Positions 2,367-54,535 of a DNA stretch of 64,000 nucleotides are shown piece after piece. This DNA comes from Escherichia phage phiC120. Numbering within the stretch: the stretch's first letter is position 1; each line of letters starts with the position of its first letter. The translations under genes and the position numbers were made by a program. Under the pieces are notes generated by a model that ran no database searches, was not told the origin of the DNA, and saw only the letters and a list, made by a program, of their open reading frames with translations. Where the stretch lies: sequence record KY703222; one strand, 5' to 3'.

Positions 2367-2759
2367 CTACTTTTTAAAAGTTTTTTGCAAAAGTTTGATG
2401 ATTTCGTCGACGTTGGTTTCATCTACGATACAATGGATTTTTGTTACACCTAAAGTTATACCTTCGTTAGTAGGTTGAGGCTTTACTAAATCTACCTCAG
2501 TAAAGTATTTGAACTCGTCAGGATAAATCTCAAAATAAGTTTCAATTTCACCACCGGCAGAACATACAGTACCATCTTCCATAGTTACACTTACTACGTT
2601 TGGCGTATCGTTATCATAATCAGGTTCCATTCCGTTTACAACAAAACTAGGCCCATGGAGTTCAATCAATTTTAACATCTTAGCGTTATTGTGTGGTGCT
2701 TCTTGAACAAAGTCGTCTTTAAATAAAGGGTTAATGATATAAGATTTTCCGATTTCCAT
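2367..2759 (-). CDS. Hypothetical protein (130 aa; ORF track gives 148 aa)
   Basis: ATG at 2759 preceded by GAGGAA RBS; the longer start at 2813 has none and would overlap the upstream ORF. Confidence 0.5.
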   Translation of the reverse strand: MEIGKSYIINPLFKDDFVQEAPHNNAKMLKLIELHGPSFVVNGMEPDYDNDTPNVVSVTMEDGTVCSAGGEIETYFEIYPDEFKYFTEVDLVKPQPTNEGITLGVTKIHCIVDETNVDEIIKLLQKTFKK

Positions 2760-2769
2760 TTTGATTTCC

Positions 2770-3021
2770 TCATTTGTTGATGTGTTGTAATAAAGATTCC
2801 GCAAACGTCTCATATGATTCCAGGTGTTCTTCTTTAATGCGAACTACATGATTATCACCCGAAGAATAGAACATCTGTACGATAAGAGCTTCGTAATCAG
2901 ACGAAATACATGCTACGTTTTCCGGCTTCAGGCATTCATTGTATGTCGCAACTGGGTCAGTGAAAGCTGCAACGTTTTTGCTACCGCAGTAATCCATACT
3001 TCTTTGAATAATAAAAATCAT
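2770..3021 (-). CDS. Hypothetical protein (83 aa)
   Basis: ORF track; GAGAGG RBS; early promoter immediately upstream. Confidence 0.5.
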   Translation of the reverse strand: MIFIIQRSMDYCGSKNVAAFTDPVATYNECLKPENVACISSDYEALIVQMFYSSGDNHVVRIKEEHLESYETFAESLLQHINK

Positions 3022-19852: not shown

Positions 19853-21178
19853 TCAAAGTGCCTCCAAGTCTTTAGTGTACTCTGTCACAACATCAGTAGA
19901 CTTCCAATACTCATTTTCTTCTTTCTTAGCTTTAGCTTCTTCTGCTAGTTTACGTGCTTCATCGGAAGTGATATGGAAGATGTTAAGACCTACCAGTTTA
20001 TCGACATGTTCTTTATACATTTCGATTTGTGCTAGCTCTTCAGTCAAAGCTTTACGAGTCTTGCCCTGAATCACAATTTCACCACTGATAACTTTTTTGA
20101 TGAAGTGTGCCTTAGCAAAAGCCAGTTTAAATGCTTTTTCAGATTCAAGGATTTTGTTGTCAATACGTTTCTGAACGTAAGTCTTACGGACTTCAACAAA
20201 ATCTTTGATTAAGTCTACTACATTATCGTAGACCGCTAATTTACCTTTTTCATTAATCACTGTGATGTTTTGTGAACGACGTTCGATGAGACTAAAATCT
20301 TTCATGATTTTTTCATGACGTAGCTCTTCATTATCAGGAAGCGAGTACTCTTTACGGAACTTCACCTTAAACCCAAAGCCGTGTTCACCACAATCATCTT
20401 CCCATGAGATTAGACCTTTGTCTTCCAACGGGTCAAGAACCTTACTCACATACGTTTCACGGTCGAATTTATATGGGATTTCAGTTATCTGCATTTGAGT
20501 ACGAGATGTGAACTTATATGTTCCATGAATCTCATATCGCCCATCAACTTCATGCACTTCACCACGGAATTCCGGGAATTCAACTTTTGGCTTAGTGACA
20601 TTTTTACCTTGAAGAGCTTGTAATACAGCCTTTTTGACTGATTTAAAACTATGAGGCAGAATATTTGTTGCGTAACCGGTTGCAATACCAGAGACACCAT
20701 TCAAAAGAACTGTCGGAATAATAGGAAGATAGAATTTTGGTGGAACGTGTTCTTTATCTTCATGAGCTGGAGCATATTCAGTATCTTTATAGACATTATA
20801 GAAATTTTTACTTACACGAGCAAAAATATAACGAGATGCTGCAGCTTTTTGGACTGTTCTAGAACCAAAGTTGCCTTGGCCATCTAACAGTGGATAGTTG
20901 TTGTTCCATGTGTTAGCCATCAATGCACCTGCATCTTGTGCAGAAGATTCACCATGGTGATAACCTAAATCTGCAACACCACCCGCAATTGACGCAAGTT
21001 TATGAAATTTTTCTTTATTACCACGAGCCAAATCTAATGCACGATGAACCACAAAACGTTGAACCGGCTTAAATCCATCAATCATATTTGGGATTGCACG
21101 GTTTTCAACGGTGTACATCGCGTATGCTAAGGCTTCGTTATCAATAATACTTTTTAGATTACGAGAATTCAATTGCAT
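19853..21178 (-). CDS. 52: DNA topoisomerase II medium subunit gp52
   Basis: 441 aa (T4 442); GyrA-like N-terminal motif. Confidence 0.93.
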   Translation of the reverse strand: MQLNSRNLKSIIDNEALAYAMYTVENRAIPNMIDGFKPVQRFVVHRALDLARGNKEKFHKLASIAGGVADLGYHHGESSAQDAGALMANTWNNNYPLLDGQGNFGSRTVQKAAASRYIFARVSKNFYNVYKDTEYAPAHEDKEHVPPKFYLPIIPTVLLNGVSGIATGYATNILPHSFKSVKKAVLQALQGKNVTKPKVEFPEFRGEVHEVDGRYEIHGTYKFTSRTQMQITEIPYKFDRETYVSKVLDPLEDKGLISWEDDCGEHGFGFKVKFRKEYSLPDNEELRHEKIMKDFSLIERRSQNITVINEKGKLAVYDNVVDLIKDFVEVRKTYVQKRIDNKILESEKAFKLAFAKAHFIKKVISGEIVIQGKTRKALTEELAQIEMYKEHVDKLVGLNIFHITSDEARKLAEEAKAKKEENEYWKSTDVVTEYTKDLEAL

Positions 21179-21182
21179 ATTT

Positions 21183-21323
21183 TCACCATATTAATGAACG
21201 AATAATCATTATAACATCTGAAATGAAAAGCACTACTTGGATTAGTCCAAACATCACACCGTAGTACAGAACCGTAAGCAACAACAAGAGCCCGAAGGCT
21301 CCTGCTAAGATGTTCTTAATCAT
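21183..21323 (-). CDS. Small hydrophobic peptide (46 aa; T4 ac-like position)
   Basis: Own translation MIKNILAGAFGLLLLLTVLYYGVMFGLIQVVLFISDVIMIIRSLIW; below ORF-track size cut-off. Confidence 0.4.
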   Translation of the reverse strand: MIKNILAGAFGLLLLLTVLYYGVMFGLIQVVLFISDVIMIIRSLIW

Positions 21324-21469
21324 TACTCGCCTTTTAACACGTTAATAAGAGCTAAGACCGCTAAGGTACCTTGTGATACTGCCTGTTGAAATACTGTTGT
21401 TTCGCCCGTAACTAAAGTGTTAACGAATAAAAACGACCAACACAGCAATGCAATAATCCATGCTACCAT
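21323..21469 (-). CDS. Small hydrophobic peptide (48 aa)
   Basis: Own translation MVAWIIALLCWSFLFVNTLVTGETTVFQQAVSQGTLAVLALINVLKGE; GAGGT RBS; TAATG overlap with next peptide. Confidence 0.4.
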   Translation of the reverse strand: MVAWIIALLCWSFLFVNTLVTGETTVFQQAVSQGTLAVLALINVLKGE

Positions 21470-21521
21470 TTTAATTACCTCAAAAATAAATTAAAGGCCT
21501 AACTTAATAGGTCCGTATAAA

Positions 21522-21968
21522 TTAGTAACTCTGCAGAATGAATTTGAAATTATCAGCCAGAAGACGGTTCATTTCAGTGAGTGTTTGATATTCTGACGTA
21601 TGGTTGCGAGTGAATGCCAGAGCCAATTGACCTTTACCATAACCAGTAGTCAGTGGTTTCATGTTCTTAGCTGCAACAAAGATTACATCATATTCAATAT
21701 TGTTAGTGGCCATGGTACGAGCTAGTTGTGAACGGCCTTGACGAATGTGAGAAAGAATTGCATCTAACCCTTGTTTAGAACGTTGACGTCCTACAAAGAA
21801 TCGTGCTGCTACTTGACGCCAGTCAGATGAACCTTTAACGAAGAAGTAAAAACCTTCACGAGAACGAAACTCTTTAGAAACTTCAGAACCGTATTCGCCA
21901 TTACGAACTACTGCAACAACTTCACCACCGACTGCCAGAAGGTCTTTACGAGTTAAATATTTGGTCAT
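21522..21968 (-). CDS. ndd: Nucleoid disruption protein Ndd
   Basis: 148 aa; C-terminal half matches my recollection of T4 Ndd (RSQLART...[21 protein letters not shown]...ADNFKF). Confidence 0.75.
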
Positions 21969-22044
21969 GCTAATTTCCTCAATTGATTAATGTTTTTGTA
22001 ATCCATGAGAGCATTATACTCTGCTCTCAAGAGTTTGTACAATT

Positions 22045-22245
22045 TTATTCGGCCATATCAGAACGTTCAAAAAGCTCTTCAACAGTTAAACATTCAGTGT
22101 CATCCTCGATAAAGAATCGGGTCCAACACGTTGGGGCGATGCAGTTATGAGTTTGTCCAGCTATAGAAGCTACACGAATAAGCTGCTGTCCATTATTCAG
22201 GACAAATTTTTCACCAATTTCAACATCTTTAAAAAGCTTAGCCAT
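22045..22245 (-). CDS. Hypothetical protein (66 aa)
   Basis: ORF track; GAGGAA RBS; early promoter upstream. Confidence 0.45.
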   Translation of the reverse strand: MAKLFKDVEIGEKFVLNNGQQLIRVASIAGQTHNCIAPTCWTRFFIEDDTECLTVEELFERSDMAE

Positions 22246-22273
22246 TTTGTGTTCCTCATGTTTAAGTAGGACT

Positions 22274-22303
22274 ACTATACCATAATCCTACTGTGTTGTA
22301 AAC
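22274..22303 (-). promoter_or_regulatory. Sigma70-type early promoter (GTTTAC-18-TATAGT)
   Basis: Minus strand GTTTACaacacagtaggattatggTATAGT. Confidence 0.45.
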
Positions 22304-22495
22304 AATTAAATTACATTAAGATATGTTAAAGCCAACCATGTTCCAGTGAACGAGCATGCAATGTAAAAAACCGTATCACAAAATGTTCTTAGTACAATAA
22401 GAAGTGCATTTTTCATAAGTACCTCAACACAATTGAAAATATTATACAAATCATTGGGATACTAAGCAACCATATTCCTATCCACATTTTAGAGC

Positions 22496-22759
22496 TCATA
22501 TCTCAACTTCCGTGAGTTCCATATATCCTTTGTTGATAACCTCTTTAAGGTCTTTAGAAAGAATAACACCAAAATGGTCATTCATATGTCCATTAACTAA
22601 ACGAGTTATTTCGGCTTCGGATGACATATAAGGCACGTCTGAGTCCCAATGAGATAGACCTAAATGAGTATAAATCATCCCTTCGTCATCTGCAGTGTTG
22701 TACATTGAAACAAACTCACCAGTCACTTTATGTTTTGCGTAGAAAAATTTAAATTTCAT
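22496..22759 (-). CDS. Hypothetical protein (87 aa)
   Basis: ORF track; AAGAGGA RBS. Confidence 0.45.
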   Translation of the reverse strand: MKFKFFYAKHKVTGEFVSMYNTADDEGMIYTHLGLSHWDSDVPYMSSEAEITRLVNGHMNDHFGVILSKDLKEVINKGYMELTEVEI

Positions 22760-22785
22760 GATGTTATCCTCTTTTAGATAGGACT

Positions 22786-22815
22786 ACTATATCATAGTCC
22801 TACTTAGTTGTAAAC
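22786..22815 (-). promoter_or_regulatory. Sigma70-type early promoter (GTTTAC-18-TATAGT)
   Basis: Minus strand GTTTACaactaagtaggactatgaTATAGT; 8-bp inverted repeat TAGGACTA/TAGTCCTA flanks the -10. Confidence 0.45.
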
Positions 22816-22828
22816 ACTTTTTATGGAA

Positions 22829-23305
22829 TTAAAGATGAAGATACCACCCGTTGTAGTTGCTCTTACGAACGATTTTCTTTAGGTCTTCATGGTCTCCCAC
22901 GAACTTTATAGAATAAGAGAAGACGTCAGGTGAGGTTTCTTTGACATTCAATATAATAATACAGTCTGCAACTCGATGATTCAGGAAGGGCCCTATGTTG
23001 ATTCCGTTGCCACCCGGATAATCACCACTGTATCCTGTGGTAACAGAAATCCATTTAGAATCCATCTGATGTGTCTTGACTTCTACACGAATTCCACAAT
23101 ATTTAGGATGGGCTAACACGTCCCATGCATACGTGTACGGGTCTTCTACGTCTTCATTACCTTTATTAACATATCCGTCTAGCCAATTTGCTACTACATA
23201 CTCTGCAAAGACTGCAACCTTACAACGTCGAACTACATCTTCTTTGTTTTGGTCTGGATTTTGGCTCAATGAATATCGAGCAGTGTCAGCAATCTTCACT
23301 TTCAT
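22829..23305 (-). CDS. Hypothetical protein, possible nuclease (T4 denB position); 158 aa from ATG 23305
   Basis: D...EVK pattern is a weak hint only; longer ORF-track form would overlap the upstream ORF by about 128 nt. Confidence 0.35.
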   Translation of the reverse strand: MKVKIADTARYSLSQNPDQNKEDVVRRCKVAVFAEYVVANWLDGYVNKGNEDVEDPYTYAWDVLAHPKYCGIRVEVKTHQMDSKWISVTTGYSGDYPGGNGINIGPFLNHRVADCIIILNVKETSPDVFSYSIKFVGDHEDLKKIVRKSNYNGWYLHL

Positions 23306-23321
23306 TTCACTAGTCAAAAAC

Positions 23322-23609
23322 TCATTCGACAGGATAAATGTCGGAAGATTCTTCAGTCTCAACAGTCCCAAGTTCGTCTTTACCATAGATACCTCTGATG
23401 TGTAGTTCGCCAAAATAAATGCGGTCTCCTTCTTCAAGATAGTTAGCATCTACCGGTGGGATTTCAATAACAACTTCGTCGCATTCTAACCAGCCATAGT
23501 GTGCATCACCAGGATGTTTTACCAATTTAGCACAATAAACTGATTTACACTTATGATGACCACGAAGATTAGCAATTTTGGATTCTGATACGTCAAATGG
23601 ATGAATCAT
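23322..23609 (-). CDS. Hypothetical protein (95 aa)
   Basis: ORF track; AGGGG RBS. Confidence 0.45.
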   Translation of the reverse strand: MIHPFDVSESKIANLRGHHKCKSVYCAKLVKHPGDAHYGWLECDEVVIEIPPVDANYLEEGDRIYFGELHIRGIYGKDELGTVETEESSDIYPVE

Positions 23610-37576: not shown

Positions 37577-38185
37577 TCAGTAACTGACAATAGTCAGATT
37601 CCAGATTGTATAATTTCCGTCTTGAATAATAGAATCTACACGCAGTGTAGTCCCTATAGGGAGCATAAATTCACATTCATCAGATATAAGTCTAGCATTA
37701 GACCGTCTTGTCGCTTCAGGGAAAGCTCCATTGAACTCACAAGATGGCGCAGCCAGAATCATGTTAAGCATATGTTCACGGAAGTTGAAAGCAAACGGTG
37801 CATCTTTGATGCAGAACATATTAAATGTTCCATAAAAATTATATGAAGCGAAGTTACGTGCTACACTGAACACTGGGCTGAAGCTCATTACTCTATCAAA
37901 TTTAATAATACTACCAACATCTTTATCATCGAGTGTGGCCATAGTTTTCTTAGAGATTCCACGATACATTGTCTCAGGAACTGAAGACGACCAATTTCTA
38001 CGAACAATTGCACTTAAATCTTGTTGGATGCTATCAGGCTTGTTTTCCATACACTGCCACAGTACACTTTGTTCGATGTCACTGAATTGCTCATCGATTT
38101 TGTACTGAAGCATATCTTGATAATCTGGACATTGAGCACGTCGAACCATTTCCTCAATTTCACATTCATTATACGGCATAAACAT
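37577..38185 (-). CDS. ADP-ribosyltransferase (ModA/ModB-like)
   Basis: 202 aa; R (YRGIS), S-x-S (SFSP) and E-x-E (DECEF) triad typical of ADP-ribosyltransferases; T4 modA/modB neighbourhood. Confidence 0.6.
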   Translation of the reverse strand: MFMPYNECEIEEMVRRAQCPDYQDMLQYKIDEQFSDIEQSVLWQCMENKPDSIQQDLSAIVRRNWSSSVPETMYRGISKKTMATLDDKDVGSIIKFDRVMSFSPVFSVARNFASYNFYGTFNMFCIKDAPFAFNFREHMLNMILAAPSCEFNGAFPEATRRSNARLISDECEFMLPIGTTLRVDSIIQDGNYTIWNLTIVSY

Positions 38186-38242
38186 TTAGATTTCTCCTGT
38201 GGTTGATAAAAGTATAGTATCATCGTCGGTAGAGTTTGTACA

Positions 38243-38377
38243 CTAAAAATTCAACATTTTCAAATGAATGATTTTGTATAATCGAGATAAAGGGATATAT
38301 TCTAAGTCTTCAATTTCCACAATCTCAAATCTAGAGATACCCGAGACCATGTACTCTTGTTCAGATTGACATGTCAT
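38243..38377 (-). CDS. Small ORF (44 aa)
   Basis: Own translation MTCQSEQEYMVSGISRFEIVEIEDLEYIPLSRLYKIIHLKMLNF; GGAGG RBS 7 nt upstream; early promoter just upstream. Confidence 0.35.
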   Translation of the reverse strand: MTCQSEQEYMVSGISRFEIVEIEDLEYIPLSRLYKIIHLKMLNF

Positions 38378-38404
38378 GATAGACCTCCATTTAAAGATAA
38401 GCCT

Positions 38405-38433
38405 ATCATAACACGAGAGGAGGGAATGTAAAC
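38405..38433 (-). promoter_or_regulatory. Sigma70-type early promoter (GTTTAC-17-TATGAT)
   Basis: Minus strand GTTTACattccctcctctcgtgtTATGAT. Confidence 0.45.
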
Positions 38434-38597
38434 TACTTTTTAAGCTTTCCGACTAAAGGTCCATCAGGCCCAGGTTGTTCTAACATGAATGGTGATGCTT
38501 TAAGAAGCAATGCCAACCCTTTCACCATTCGATACCATATCTCAAAGTCCTTTTTCTTGGTTTCCACTAAGAATTGCTCTTTCAAATGCTCTTTCAT
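38433..38597 (-). CDS. Small ORF (54 aa)
   Basis: Own translation MKEHLKEQFLVETKKKDFEIWYRMVKGLALLLKASPF...; ATGA overlap with upstream ORF. Confidence 0.3.
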   Translation of the reverse strand: MKEHLKEQFLVETKKKDFEIWYRMVKGLALLLKASPFMLEQPGPDGPLVGKLKK

Positions 38598-38782
38598 TTC
38601 CAAGGACTCCACGGTGGTGGGTCGTCATAATAAGAGGCTAGGTCTTTCAGGGCTTCGACAGGTAAACTAAAGCCGTGTCGTTGTATAATACTATCTAGTT
38701 CATCAACAAGTTCACTACGATGCACTTTAGGAGCCTTGACTTCAGGCTCATCAAACATACTCATAAGGTCCATATTATTCAC
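38594..38782 (-). CDS. Hypothetical protein (62 aa)
   Basis: ORF track. Confidence 0.4.
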   Translation of the reverse strand: MNNMDLMSMFDEPEVKAPKVHRSELVDELDSIIQRHGFSLPVEALKDLASYYDDPPPWSPWK

Positions 38783-39239
38783 CGAGATAAAAACTAGCCG
38801 GTTCAGAAAATGTTTCTAGTGCTACACCTTTTGTCTTAAAAAATTTCCAAATAGCTCGTTGCAAATGGATTAAATCTGCTAATGATGTAATAAAGTATTT
38901 TTTGGCAAAATACTTATGGTCTCGCTTTTCAAACAAGTCTAAACGCTTTTCAGGATTCACATAAACGGCATTTTCTGTAGATTCGTACCCTAAGTCCTTT
39001 ATGCCTTCTTCAAGACTAAACGGAGAATTTTTAGAATGAGTAATAGCTCCAACTCGCTCTACACGAATTTTGTAACCTTTAGGAATCTGCAATTTGCAGA
39101 ATTCTTCTACGATATATTGCGGATTATTTAGACTTTTGTTAACGAGAATAGCTATTTCTAGCGGAGTCTTATCTTCTACTGGTATATGTTTAAACGACTT
39201 GGCTTCAAGCAAATACATTTTAAATAGCATAGCATCCAT
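38775..39239 (-). CDS. Hypothetical protein (154 aa)
   Basis: ORF track; TAATG coupling with upstream small ORF. Confidence 0.45.
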   Translation of the reverse strand: MDAMLFKMYLLEAKSFKHIPVEDKTPLEIAILVNKSLNNPQYIVEEFCKLQIPKGYKIRVERVGAITHSKNSPFSLEEGIKDLGYESTENAVYVNPEKRLDLFEKRDHKYFAKKYFITSLADLIHLQRAIWKFFKTKGVALETFSEPASFYLGE

Positions 39240-39418
39240 TATAATTTCCTCAATGGTTCACCCATATAAAGTTTTACAATACGTTCGCCTTCATCTTCGA
39301 CGAGCTTTTCTTCATGTTTCTGGAGTTCTTTGACCATTTTCTCTTCAAAAACATCTAACCAATCTTCCGGTCCGACTCCATCATTCAAGCTTTTAAACCA
39401 TTTTACTATTCTGTTCAT
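39239..39418 (-). CDS. Small acidic ORF (59 aa)
   Basis: Own translation MNRIVKWFKSLNDGVGPEDWLDVFEEKMVKELQKHEEKLVEDEGERIVKLYMGEPLRKL; ATGA/TAATG overlaps on both sides. Confidence 0.35.
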   Translation of the reverse strand: MNRIVKWFKSLNDGVGPEDWLDVFEEKMVKELQKHEEKLVEDEGERIVKLYMGEPLRKL

Positions 39419-39603
39419 TCACAGCTCCCTGAGCTTGAACCACAATCAGAATAACTTGTCCCAGAATCACCAGGCCAAGACGATACGTATGAATGATTAT
39501 AACTTGAAGAGCTTGAAGCAGACTTAGGACGAATAACTTCTTCCATCATGCCGTCACCAATGTATTCCCAACTTTTTTCGTGTGTATCAGGAATAGGCAT
39601 CAT
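39415..39603 (-). CDS. Hypothetical Ser-rich protein (62 aa from ATG 39603)
   Basis: Internal ATG pair with GAAGGT RBS; the longer ORF-track form overlaps the upstream ORF by 110 nt. Confidence 0.3.
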   Translation of the reverse strand: MMPIPDTHEKSWEYIGDGMMEEVIRPKSASSSSSYNHSYVSSWPGDSGTSYSDCGSSSGSCE

Positions 39604-39616
39604 ACCTTCGCCTGGT

Positions 39617-39913
39617 TTAACAGCAAATAACTTCTTCAGTATCGTAAGCATTAATTGTTCCTCGAACAAAACGAACACCACCATCATCCCAACGGATTTC
39701 GGCATTAAATTTGACGTCTTCACCATCCATCATGAATGAGTGTACGACTACATCATCGTAATATCCAAGACCGTATTTCAACGAAACTTCTTGAGCAATC
39801 AAAGCACCTAATGTATTATTAGGTTTAATCCAACGATTTAACATATTGTTCTCCTCTTGAGTAGGTAAGAATATCTTAACACAGTTTTTAGTGGTTGTAA
39901 ACTGTAGAAACAA
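39617..39913 (-). CDS. Hypothetical protein (98 aa or shorter)
   Basis: ORF track. Confidence 0.4.
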   Translation of the reverse strand: MFLQFTTTKNCVKIFLPTQEENNMLNRWIKPNNTLGALIAQEVSLKYGLGYYDDVVVHSFMMDGEDVKFNAEIRWDDGGVRFVRGTINAYDTEEVICC

Positions 39914-54391: not shown

Positions 54392-54535
54392 CTAGTTAAA
54401 GCATTCATACTTTGCCTGTAGACCAATCATAATCCATCCAATTACAAGTGTTGGAATCATTACTGGAGCCGTTAAGCTCCAGTAGATAGTCATGACAAGC
54501 ATCAATAGTAAAAGTCCTATTGTTATTGCTTTCAT
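54392..54535 (-). CDS. Small membrane peptide (47 aa)
   Basis: Own translation MKAITIGLLLLMLVMTIYWSLTAPVMIPTLVIGWIMIGLQAKYECFN; ATGA overlap with the SIS gene. Confidence 0.35.
   Translation of the reverse strand: MKAITIGLLLLMLVMTIYWSLTAPVMIPTLVIGWIMIGLQAKYECFN

Follow-up and report, generated by a model that had tools for sequence, protein, structure and literature searches.

Probable small membrane-protein genes, including homologues of T4 gp52.1, Ac and Ndd.6, in the rIIB-52 early region of Escherichia phage phiC120

Four micro-ORFs of 46, 48, 28 and 36 aa in Escherichia phage phiC120 are, with a probability that we put at roughly 0.88, genuine genes for small predicted membrane proteins in the deletable rIIB-52 early region, encoding gp52.1, Ac, Ndd.6 and a Mosigvirus-specific peptide, respectively. 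In the T4 reference record, the counterparts of gp52.1, Ac and Ndd.6 already carry names and annotations; all four ORFs also fall into catalogued PHROG families. The observation on these micro-ORFs is thus correct but ordinary: their identities are already known, and the finding adds little beyond re-identifying genes present in the T4 reference record, Pfam and PHROGs.

The window, by which we mean the whole 64,000-nucleotide stretch of sequence record KY703222 that was analyzed, comes from an RB69-type (Mosigvirus) T4-like phage, shares 97% DNA identity with about 150 Mosigvirus genomes, and keeps the T4 gene order rIIB-denB-ndd.x-ndd-ac-52.1-52. All four micro-ORFs lie on the minus strand where the original prediction located them, each with an ATG start. 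Their description as mostly hydrophobic also holds, with GRAVY values of 1.18 to 1.88 and a mean of at least 1.7 in the best 19-residue Kyte-Doolittle window of each ORF (range 1.7-2.6), which corresponds to at least one stretch of sufficient length to cross a bilayer. Full-length PHROG matches were obtained for all four (E 1e-11 to 1e-25). The chance of an open frame over 28-48 codons at 37% GC is 0.13-0.03, so openness by itself is weak evidence, and it is conservation that establishes the genes. All four frames proved to be conserved in related phages, whether by low dN/dS (gp52.1), alignment with T4 (Ac and Ndd.6) or an excess of synonymous changes (the 36-aa ORF, hereafter p36). The selection analysis used GenBank records; an IMG/VR scan with Ndd gave three loci, too few to use. 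Within Mosigvirus, omega in the wrong frames was mostly above 1, compared with in-frame values of 0.27 for the Ac homologue and, on small counts of 10-12 changes each, 0.15 for the Ndd.6 homologue and 0.21 for p36.

The 46-aa ORF (21183..21323, minus strand; GRAVY 1.88) matches the Pfam family DUF7396 (PF24129) over residues 1-46 of 46 with 75.3 bits, against a gathering cut-off of 27, and phrog_3595 with E 1.8e-21. T4 gp52.1 (NP_049876) is likewise 46 aa long and 70% identical overall; the N-terminal third diverges, whereas the core YYGVMFGLIQVVLFISDVI is identical, and this core is invariant between Mosigvirus and Tequatrovirus at saturated synonymous sites. The dN/dS of gp52.1 is 0.09 against T4 and 0.14 against Bp7 (about 0.09-0.15, with pS near 0.7), compared with 0.22-0.33 for ndd. 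Within Mosigvirus, there is no synonymous excess (6 synonymous versus 12 non-synonymous changes, P = 0.24, binomial) and omega is 0.62, no better than in the off-frames, so the coding case for gp52.1 rests on the cross-genus comparison. An AF2 model predicts one long helix (residues 2-45, pLDDT 96.5), which would contain an invariant G22xxxG26. The gene lies directly upstream of gene 52 on the same strand in the window, T4, RB69, Bp7, KpF48, MY742, Kosakonia 305, STP4-a and Vettismorki; no 52.1 homologue was found upstream of gene 52 in Acinetobacter, RB49-like, Aeromonas and Vibrio T4-type phages or in PM2.

The 48-aa ORF (21323..21469, minus strand; GRAVY 1.22) is a homologue of Ac, the 'acridine resistance protein', by BLASTP against T4 Ac (E 1e-7), by tblastn matches that fall on annotated ac genes and by phrog_2501 (E 2.4e-22). 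Like T4 Ac (NP_049877), it is a small hydrophobic two-helix protein encoded between ndd and 52.1, and the motif CW...SVF.QA..QG is common to both. It differs in length (48 aa versus 51 aa in T4) and is only 34% identical, resembling a second Tequatrovirus allele (RPN226) more than that of T4, and the interval from ndd to ac differs from that of T4 in having no stp gene. Its dN/dS is 0.20 against one Tequatrovirus allele, and the synonymous excess within Mosigvirus has P = 0.0015 (binomial). In two genomes the stop codon has changed from TAA to CAA, which shifts termination to an ATGA overlap and keeps the coupling arrangement. AF2 predicts a helix-turn-helix hairpin (pLDDT 77). Large-database searches returned four clusters for Ac and nine for gp52.1, all from T4-like phages, with no wider family. 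Neither protein had NCBIfam matches, and comparison with solved structures gave no sequence relative of either (the best E, about 1, was to unrelated proteins). Mimicry of a known efflux-pump partner by Ac is thus unsupported.

The 28-aa ORF (22413..22499, minus strand; GRAVY 1.61; phrog_8851) is identical to T4 Ndd.6 (NP_049886) at 15 of 28 residues (54%, E 6e-10) over the full length that the two share, including the motif MSS..W...W..SIP.IC, and sits at the same denB-proximal end of the ndd.x cluster. Its dN/dS against T4 is 0.33, and within Mosigvirus its synonymous excess has P = 0.004 at the small counts given above. In both phages, its stop codon overlaps the start of the next micro-ORF as ATGA. 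The window copy differs in being coupled to an upstream gene, RB69ORF270c, which is absent at the T4 position. This gene (22496..22759, minus strand; phrog_2390; in-frame omega 0.11) encodes a soluble protein of 87 aa, p87, and is the first cistron of the upstream chain.

The original prediction had each start codon overlapping the preceding stop, which is true of the Ndd.6 homologue, p36 and gp52.1: p87 and Ndd.6 share the ATGA at 22496-22499, Ndd.6 and p36 that at 22413-22416, and a TAATG joins the stop of Ac to the start of gp52.1, with base 21323 common to both (in T4, the overlap of ac with 52.1 is 8 nt). It is not true of Ac, which starts 52 nt after the gene for the nucleoid disruption protein, ndd (21522..21968, minus strand), and has its own GAGG Shine-Dalgarno. 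The same kind of stop/start overlap is found in the window at 21 of the 78 stops of long genes (about 27%) and is a genome-wide style, no special device of these micro-ORFs. An early-type promoter at about 22815 would drive the chain p87, Ndd.6 and p36, and a second polycistronic chain would consist of ndd followed by Ac, gp52.1 and gene 52 (topoisomerase II medium subunit; 19853..21178, minus strand), with a promoter-like site at 22041..22013 upstream of ndd. The Ndd.1 homologue between the chains (66 aa, soluble; 22045..22245, minus strand) forms a transcription unit of its own. Inside each chain, a ribosome that terminates would find the following ATG either at the stop itself or no more than 4 nt away. 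The Shine-Dalgarno sites (GAGG or GGTGA) lie inside upstream codons, a placement conserved between the window and T4: the GAGG serving p36 is in the last codons of Ndd.6 (LRYL*), and in both phages an Arg codon of Ndd.6 holds the GAGG of the next ORF (p36 or ndd.5). In the window, the ribosome-binding region of gene 52 includes the final codons of gp52.1 (TGG TGA). Because of this spacing and placement, the short cistrons are probably translated by coupling or re-initiation, for which no intergenic space would be needed; judged from the sequence, all four ORFs are probably translated, and each cistron may depend on the one before it.

Such an arrangement could also mean that the micro-ORFs are mainly translated spacers, which feed ribosomes to the gene downstream (gp52.1 to gene 52, Ndd.6 to p36) or unfold the mRNA, their peptides being of little consequence. 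This would fit the position of the gene 52 Shine-Dalgarno within the last 52.1 codons (TGG TGA/TAA), 4-5 nt from the ATG, in most Tevenvirinae genera sampled, as well as the GAGG in the Ndd.6 Arg codon of both phages and the off-frame-like omega of 52.1 within the genus; a shotgun proteome of T4 also detected none of these peptides (Class_P = NA; PMC9697503 Table S2). However, 19 consecutive invariant residues of gp52.1 at saturated synonymous sites, with dN/dS in the range given above, indicate selection on the peptide and not on the act of translation. Furthermore, Ac expressed alone from a plasmid gives a peptide-dependent phenotype, and gene 52 is expressed in distant T4-like phages that have no 52.1. 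We consider the spacer explanation improbable and prefer genuine small protein genes.

In the early phase of infection, the peptides encoded by such genes are predicted to enter the inner membrane of the host and to alter envelope properties. For Ac, this effect would be the acridine-sensitizing function known genetically in T4, with a block of AcrAB-TolC efflux as the suggested cause; neither this mechanism nor the membrane location is more than a proposal. T4 stimulates phosphatidylglycerol synthesis but loses this effect when a deletion takes out these peptides, so that they become candidates for a role in envelope remodelling or in adaptation to particular hosts. Our analysis itself shows the ORFs with their overlaps and Shine-Dalgarno sites, their hydrophobicity, their homologies and purifying selection; we infer translation, coupling and membrane insertion of the peptides as well as the functions of gp52.1, Ndd.6 and p36, and rely on the T4 literature for early transcription, dispensability and the Ac phenotype. 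There, the transcripts for 52.1, ac and ndd.2-ndd.6 are assigned to the early class (PMC9697503 Table S2), T4 remains viable with the deletion sa-delta-9, which takes out 52.1 through denB (PMC6071114), and deletion of ac gives acriflavine resistance while Ac expression sensitizes E. coli, for which an AcrAB-TolC efflux model has been proposed (bioRxiv 10.1101/2025.06.30.662393). Searchable literature yielded no ribosome-profiling data for T4, and nothing usable on the ndd.x genes.

A more specific role, in which gp52.1 and its neighbor Ac hold the topoisomerase/replication complex of the phage to the inner membrane or regulate it there, is a long shot in our estimate. The idea comes from the single predicted helix of gp52.1, its invariant GxxxG, its 19-residue invariant core and its translation just before gp52 in most Tevenvirinae genera sampled; the start of gene 52 follows the gp52.1 stop by 4 nt in the window, as it does in T4. 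Acriflavine-resistance phenotypes have been reported for mutants of the topoisomerase genes 39/60, and a tether, if true, would join these phenotypes to the acridine phenotype of ac. An obligatory partnership between gp52.1 and gp52 is weakened by the distant T4-type phages that have gene 52 without 52.1 and by the viability of the T4 52.1 deletion.

p36 (22306..22416, minus strand; GRAVY 1.18; phrog_18561) occupies the position of ndd.5 in T4. It resembles T4 Ndd.5 in its slot, its coupling to Ndd.6, its small size and its hydrophobicity, but the two have no detectable sequence similarity. A homology to Ndd.5 was rejected because no local alignment appeared at E <= 100, and p36 is a positional analogue only. 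Exchange of ndd.4/.5 cassettes between T4 and PST has been described (PMC4122927), and the pattern of p36 and Ndd.5 is consistent with such an exchange. That some of the four frames, chiefly p36, have stayed open by chance in AT-rich DNA between real genes is very unlikely: a frame of 36 codons is open with a probability of 0.07 at the base composition of the window, tblastn found no p36 homologue outside Mosigvirus, the gene carries a 1-nt frameshift in one genome (PECP20) and is annotated in just 6 of 11 records, and its protein is 86-92% identical in most relatives despite about 97% DNA identity, but variant codons in the p36 frame show 7 synonymous versus 5 non-synonymous changes and those in the other two frames 1 versus 10-11 (P = 0.009, binomial, on small counts), the deletion found in the p36 of two phages is an in-frame one of 3 nt, the start has a canonical, correctly spaced GAGG and an ATGA overlap, and the frame, an established PHROG family, is intact in 150 of 151 records.

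The cassette of p87, Ndd.6 and p36 is bracketed by two copies of a 47-nt repeat, for which 100 shuffles gave no match. Copy A (22773..22819, minus strand), upstream of the cassette, contains an early-promoter-like site (GTTTACA-N17-TATAGT) whose -10 hexamer is covered by an 8-bp palindrome (TAGGACTA/TAGTCCTA). Copy B (22261..22307, minus strand), directly after p36 and upstream of the Ndd.1 homologue, is 85% identical to copy A. This layout, a repeated early promoter and palindrome flanking small accessory ORFs in a hyperplastic region, partly resembles the promoter-early/stem-loop (PeSL) shuffling cassettes of T4-like phages, which have sigma70-type early promoters (Arbiol 2010; Comeau 2014), and the promoter in the window, TTTACA-N17-TATAGT, deviates little from the PST/T4 PeSL consensus TTTACW-N17-TAYWAT. 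It differs in that the palindrome of the window overlaps the -10 hexamer, whereas the PeSL stem-loop lies upstream of the promoter. Among about 150 relatives, we saw no deletion between the two copies and no indel associated with them.

The warning that ORFs of this size are easily missed was borne out, and the finding is of practical value for the quality of annotation: of the 11 related annotated records sampled, 1 lists the Ndd.6 homologue and the other 10 leave it unannotated, as 5 do with the p36 gene. Similar coupled micro-ORFs had also been suggested at three other sites, of which one, 54392..54535, is hydrophobic. There, a hydrophobic peptide of 47 aa (minus strand; GRAVY 1.36; phrog_3610) has an ATG that overlaps, as ATGA, the stop of an arabinose-5-phosphate isomerase-like gene. 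The ORFs at the other two sites are not hydrophobic. Between 38243 and 38597, in the modA-mrh region, there are a 44-aa ORF (38243..38377, minus strand; GRAVY 0.08) and a 54-aa ORF with a charged sequence (38433..38597, minus strand), both annotated in relatives, which lie 55 nt apart and have no mutual overlap. The remaining site, 39239..39418 on the minus strand, is an acidic ORF of 59 aa (GRAVY -0.75) that is coupled on both sides, by ATGA upstream and by a 1-nt overlap with mrh downstream.

All four micro-ORFs of the original prediction were found on the minus strand with ATG starts: a 46-aa ORF at 21183..21323 (GRAVY 1.88), a 48-aa ORF at 21323..21469 (1.22), a 36-aa ORF at 22306..22416 (1.18), and a 28-aa ORF at 22413..22499 (1.61). 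An open frame by itself is weak evidence, the chance of 28–48 codons staying open at 37% GC being 0.13–0.03, and it is conservation that decides gene status. The observation of coupled micro-ORFs was correct and its interpretation is supported: judging from sequence, each of the four is very probably (about 0.9) a translated gene for a small membrane protein, with early expression as part of a polycistronic mRNA.

Each of the four belongs to a gene family already known in T4-type phages. The 46-aa ORF is gp52.1, with a full-length match to Pfam DUF7396 (75.3 bits against a cut-off of 27) and a match to phrog_3595; it was found by tblastn in 748 phage records and is named 52.1 in the RB69, PhAPEC2, and T4 annotations. 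The 48-aa ORF is Ac (phrog_2501; T4 Ac alignment E 1e-7), which many records call 'acridine resistance protein'. The 28-aa ORF is a homologue of T4 Ndd.6 (15/28 residues identical, E 6e-10, phrog_8851; 757 records). The 36-aa ORF belongs to phrog_18561, with tblastn matches limited to 151 Mosigvirus-type records. It occupies the same slot as T4 ndd.5 and is likewise coupled to Ndd.6, but it shows no sequence similarity to Ndd.5 and was rejected as its homologue. Among 11 related annotated records, 10 annotate the Ac slot, nine gp52.1, six the 36-aa ORF, and one (Escherichia phage 55) the Ndd.6 homologue. For gp52.1, the AlphaFold2 model is a single unbroken helix (residues 2-45, pLDDT 96.5); for Ac, it is a helix-turn-helix spanning 2-21 and 24-45 (pLDDT 77). 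Searching solved structures by sequence gave no relative for either.

The reading frames are kept in relatives. In cross-genus Nei-Gojobori comparisons, dN/dS was 0.09 (T4) and 0.14 (Bp7) for gp52.1, 0.20 for Ac against the Tequatrovirus RPN226 allele, and 0.33 for Ndd.6 against T4, compared with 0.22-0.33 for the control gene ndd; synonymous sites of gp52.1 are saturated (pS about 0.7). The gp52.1 homologue alignment contains 19 consecutive invariant residues (YYGVMFGLIQVVLFISDVI), including GxxxG, and the motif is recognisable in phages of Klebsiella, Enterobacter, Kosakonia, Salmonella, and Erwinia. Within the genus, we compared variant with majority codons in 14 Mosigvirus-type sequences, using a binomial P for synonymous excess. 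In-frame omega was 0.15 for the 28-aa ORF (6 synonymous to 4 non-synonymous, P 0.004), 0.21 for the 36-aa ORF (7 : 5, P 0.009), and 0.27 for Ac (13 : 11, P 0.0015), with 0.14 for ndd, and was mostly above 1 in the other two frames. The same test is uninformative for gp52.1 (omega 0.62, 6 : 12, P 0.24), whose case therefore rests on the cross-genus data. The frames are also respected by natural variation: three nucleotides are missing from the 36-aa ORF in two phages, and a TAA-to-CAA change at the Ac stop in two genomes puts termination 3 nt further downstream, where it overlaps the 52.1 start in an ATGA. In phage PECP20, the 36-aa ORF lacks one nucleotide and goes out of frame after residue 17, so the gene is naturally knocked out there unless the sequence is in error.

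The proposed overlap of each start with the preceding stop holds for three of the four ORFs. An 87-aa ORF (22496..22759, minus strand) ends with its TGA inside the ATGA that starts the 28-aa ORF, which in turn terminates in the ATGA opening the 36-aa ORF, and the final A of the Ac TAA is the first base of the 52.1 ATG. The exception is Ac itself, which starts 52 nt after ndd with its own GAGG. Gene 52, encoding the topoisomerase II medium subunit, has its ATG 4 nt past the end of 52.1. At every coupled junction, a Shine-Dalgarno-like sequence lies within the final codons of the upstream ORF: gttGAGGtactt-ATGA within LRYL* of the 28-aa ORF, aaGGcGAGta-ATG within Ac, and atGGTGAaaat-ATG within IW* of gp52.1. 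This anatomy supports translational coupling, as far as sequence can indicate it. Such overlaps are a genome-wide style, with 21 of the 78 long-gene stops in the window overlapping the following ATG in the same two ways. In T4 (L004 3555-3562) and Bp7 (L011 3228-3235), the end of Ac or the Ac-slot peptide overlaps the 52.1 start ATGATTAA (M-I-K) by 8 nt, a dual-coding constraint that dictates the C-terminal 'ND*', whereas the window has a 1-nt TAATG overlap.

On the gene strand, a nearly identical early-promoter-like site, GTTTACA-N17-TATAGT with TG upstream of it, occurs twice (22815-22786 and 22303-22274), both times enclosed in an 8-bp palindrome (TAGGACTA...TAGTCCTA). Site and palindrome are contained in a 47-nt direct repeat (22261-22307 and 22773-22819; 85% identical, starts 512 nt apart) whose copies exactly flank the tricistronic unit of the 87-aa ORF, Ndd.6, and the 36-aa ORF, the motif being found nowhere else in the window. 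The repeat recalls promoter-early/stem-loop (PeSL) cassettes, by which T4-like phages are proposed to shuffle their small accessory genes; the paper that describes them gives as an example how T4 and PST differ by a swap of ndd.4/.5 (PMC4122927). Here, though, the palindrome overlaps the -10 hexamer. By this analogy the repeat looks like a PeSL-type cassette boundary; no deletion between the copies was seen in relatives. A third promoter-like site (22041-22013) precedes ndd. The gap from ndd to Ac yielded neither a promoter nor a terminator call, so ndd, Ac, 52.1, and 52 are probably co-transcribed. In T4, the genes 52.1, ac, stp, and ndd.2-ndd.6 have transcripts of the early class; shotgun proteomics detected Ndd and Ndd.1 but none of these peptides (PMC9697503 Table S2), as expected for tiny, hydrophobic products with few tryptic sites.

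T4 lacking ac is acriflavine-resistant, Ac expressed alone makes E. coli sensitive, and Ac is proposed to insert in the membrane and block AcrAB-TolC (bioRxiv 10.1101/2025.06.30.662393; echoed in PMC13250531). By homology, Ac of the window phage would act likewise. T4 survives deletion of the stretch from 52.1 through denB (sa-delta-9), and the mutant no longer stimulates phosphatidylglycerol synthesis (PMC6071114). For gp52.1, Ndd.6, and the 36-aa peptide, our best guess is that they modify the envelope or have accessory roles specific to particular hosts, which fits their dispensability and the cassette-like turnover of neighbouring genes. The Mosigvirus RPN187 (L008, 1570-1879) gives evidence of cassette replacement within a region that is otherwise 93% identical: its Ac slot is filled by a Dhakavirus-type 53-aa hydrophobic peptide, and its 52.1, of the T4/Dhakavirus allele, overlaps gene 52 through a changed 3' end. 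That gp52.1 might work with the topoisomerase is weakened by the viable T4 deletion and by gene 52 lacking an upstream 52.1 in Acinetobacter, RB49-like, Aeromonas, and Vibrio T4-type phages and PM2. In a 47-aa protein from a 2178-bp ENA contig (P0009), about the first 15 residues are those of a T4-type Ndd N-terminus (MKYMTVTDLNNAGAT) and run on in frame into the C-terminal two-thirds of gp52.1, the conserved part; the fusion looks like the product of a natural deletion of ndd-stp-ac.

The minus-strand order (rIIB, denB, small ORFs, ndd, small ORFs, 52, motA) is that of T4, whose record annotates eleven small genes between denB and 52 (ndd.6,.5,.4,.3,.2a,.2,.1, ndd, stp, ac, and 52.1). Stp, which activates the PrrC anticodon nuclease of the host, is absent between ndd and ac in the window (21469-21522), where T4, RPN226, and Bp7 encode an identical 25-26-aa Stp; Mosigvirus lacks the activator. 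The longest denB ORF (22829..23449, 206 aa) overlaps an upstream 95-aa ORF (23322..23609) by 128 nt, and relatives annotate 158 aa (477 nt) or 185 aa, leaving the true start ambiguous. The 1.7 kb at 21100-22800 is 99.8% identical to phiE142 and about 97% to ~150 Mosigvirus (RB69-type) genomes. Identity to phiE142 is only about 96% elsewhere in the window, and 95.7% in the modA-mrh region (38150-39750), where ESh27 is the best match; the phage is thus a recombinant mosaic of Mosigvirus lineages rather than phiE142 itself.

Sites elsewhere proposed as similar were so only in part. The three small ORFs of the modA-mrh region (38243..38377, 38433..38597, and 39239..39418), annotated in phiE142, are not hydrophobic, and two are coupled by overlap. 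The 47-aa ORF at 54392..54535 (phrog_3610, annotated in relatives) is hydrophobic, and its ATG overlaps the stop of an arabinose-5-phosphate isomerase-like gene; when the gap-filling ORFs of 20-60 aa on the minus strand were surveyed across the whole window, only it and the four micro-ORFs were strongly hydrophobic. Within 2670-3021, an 83-aa gene (2770..3021) is followed by another small ORF, of 33 aa, coupled to it through ATGA.
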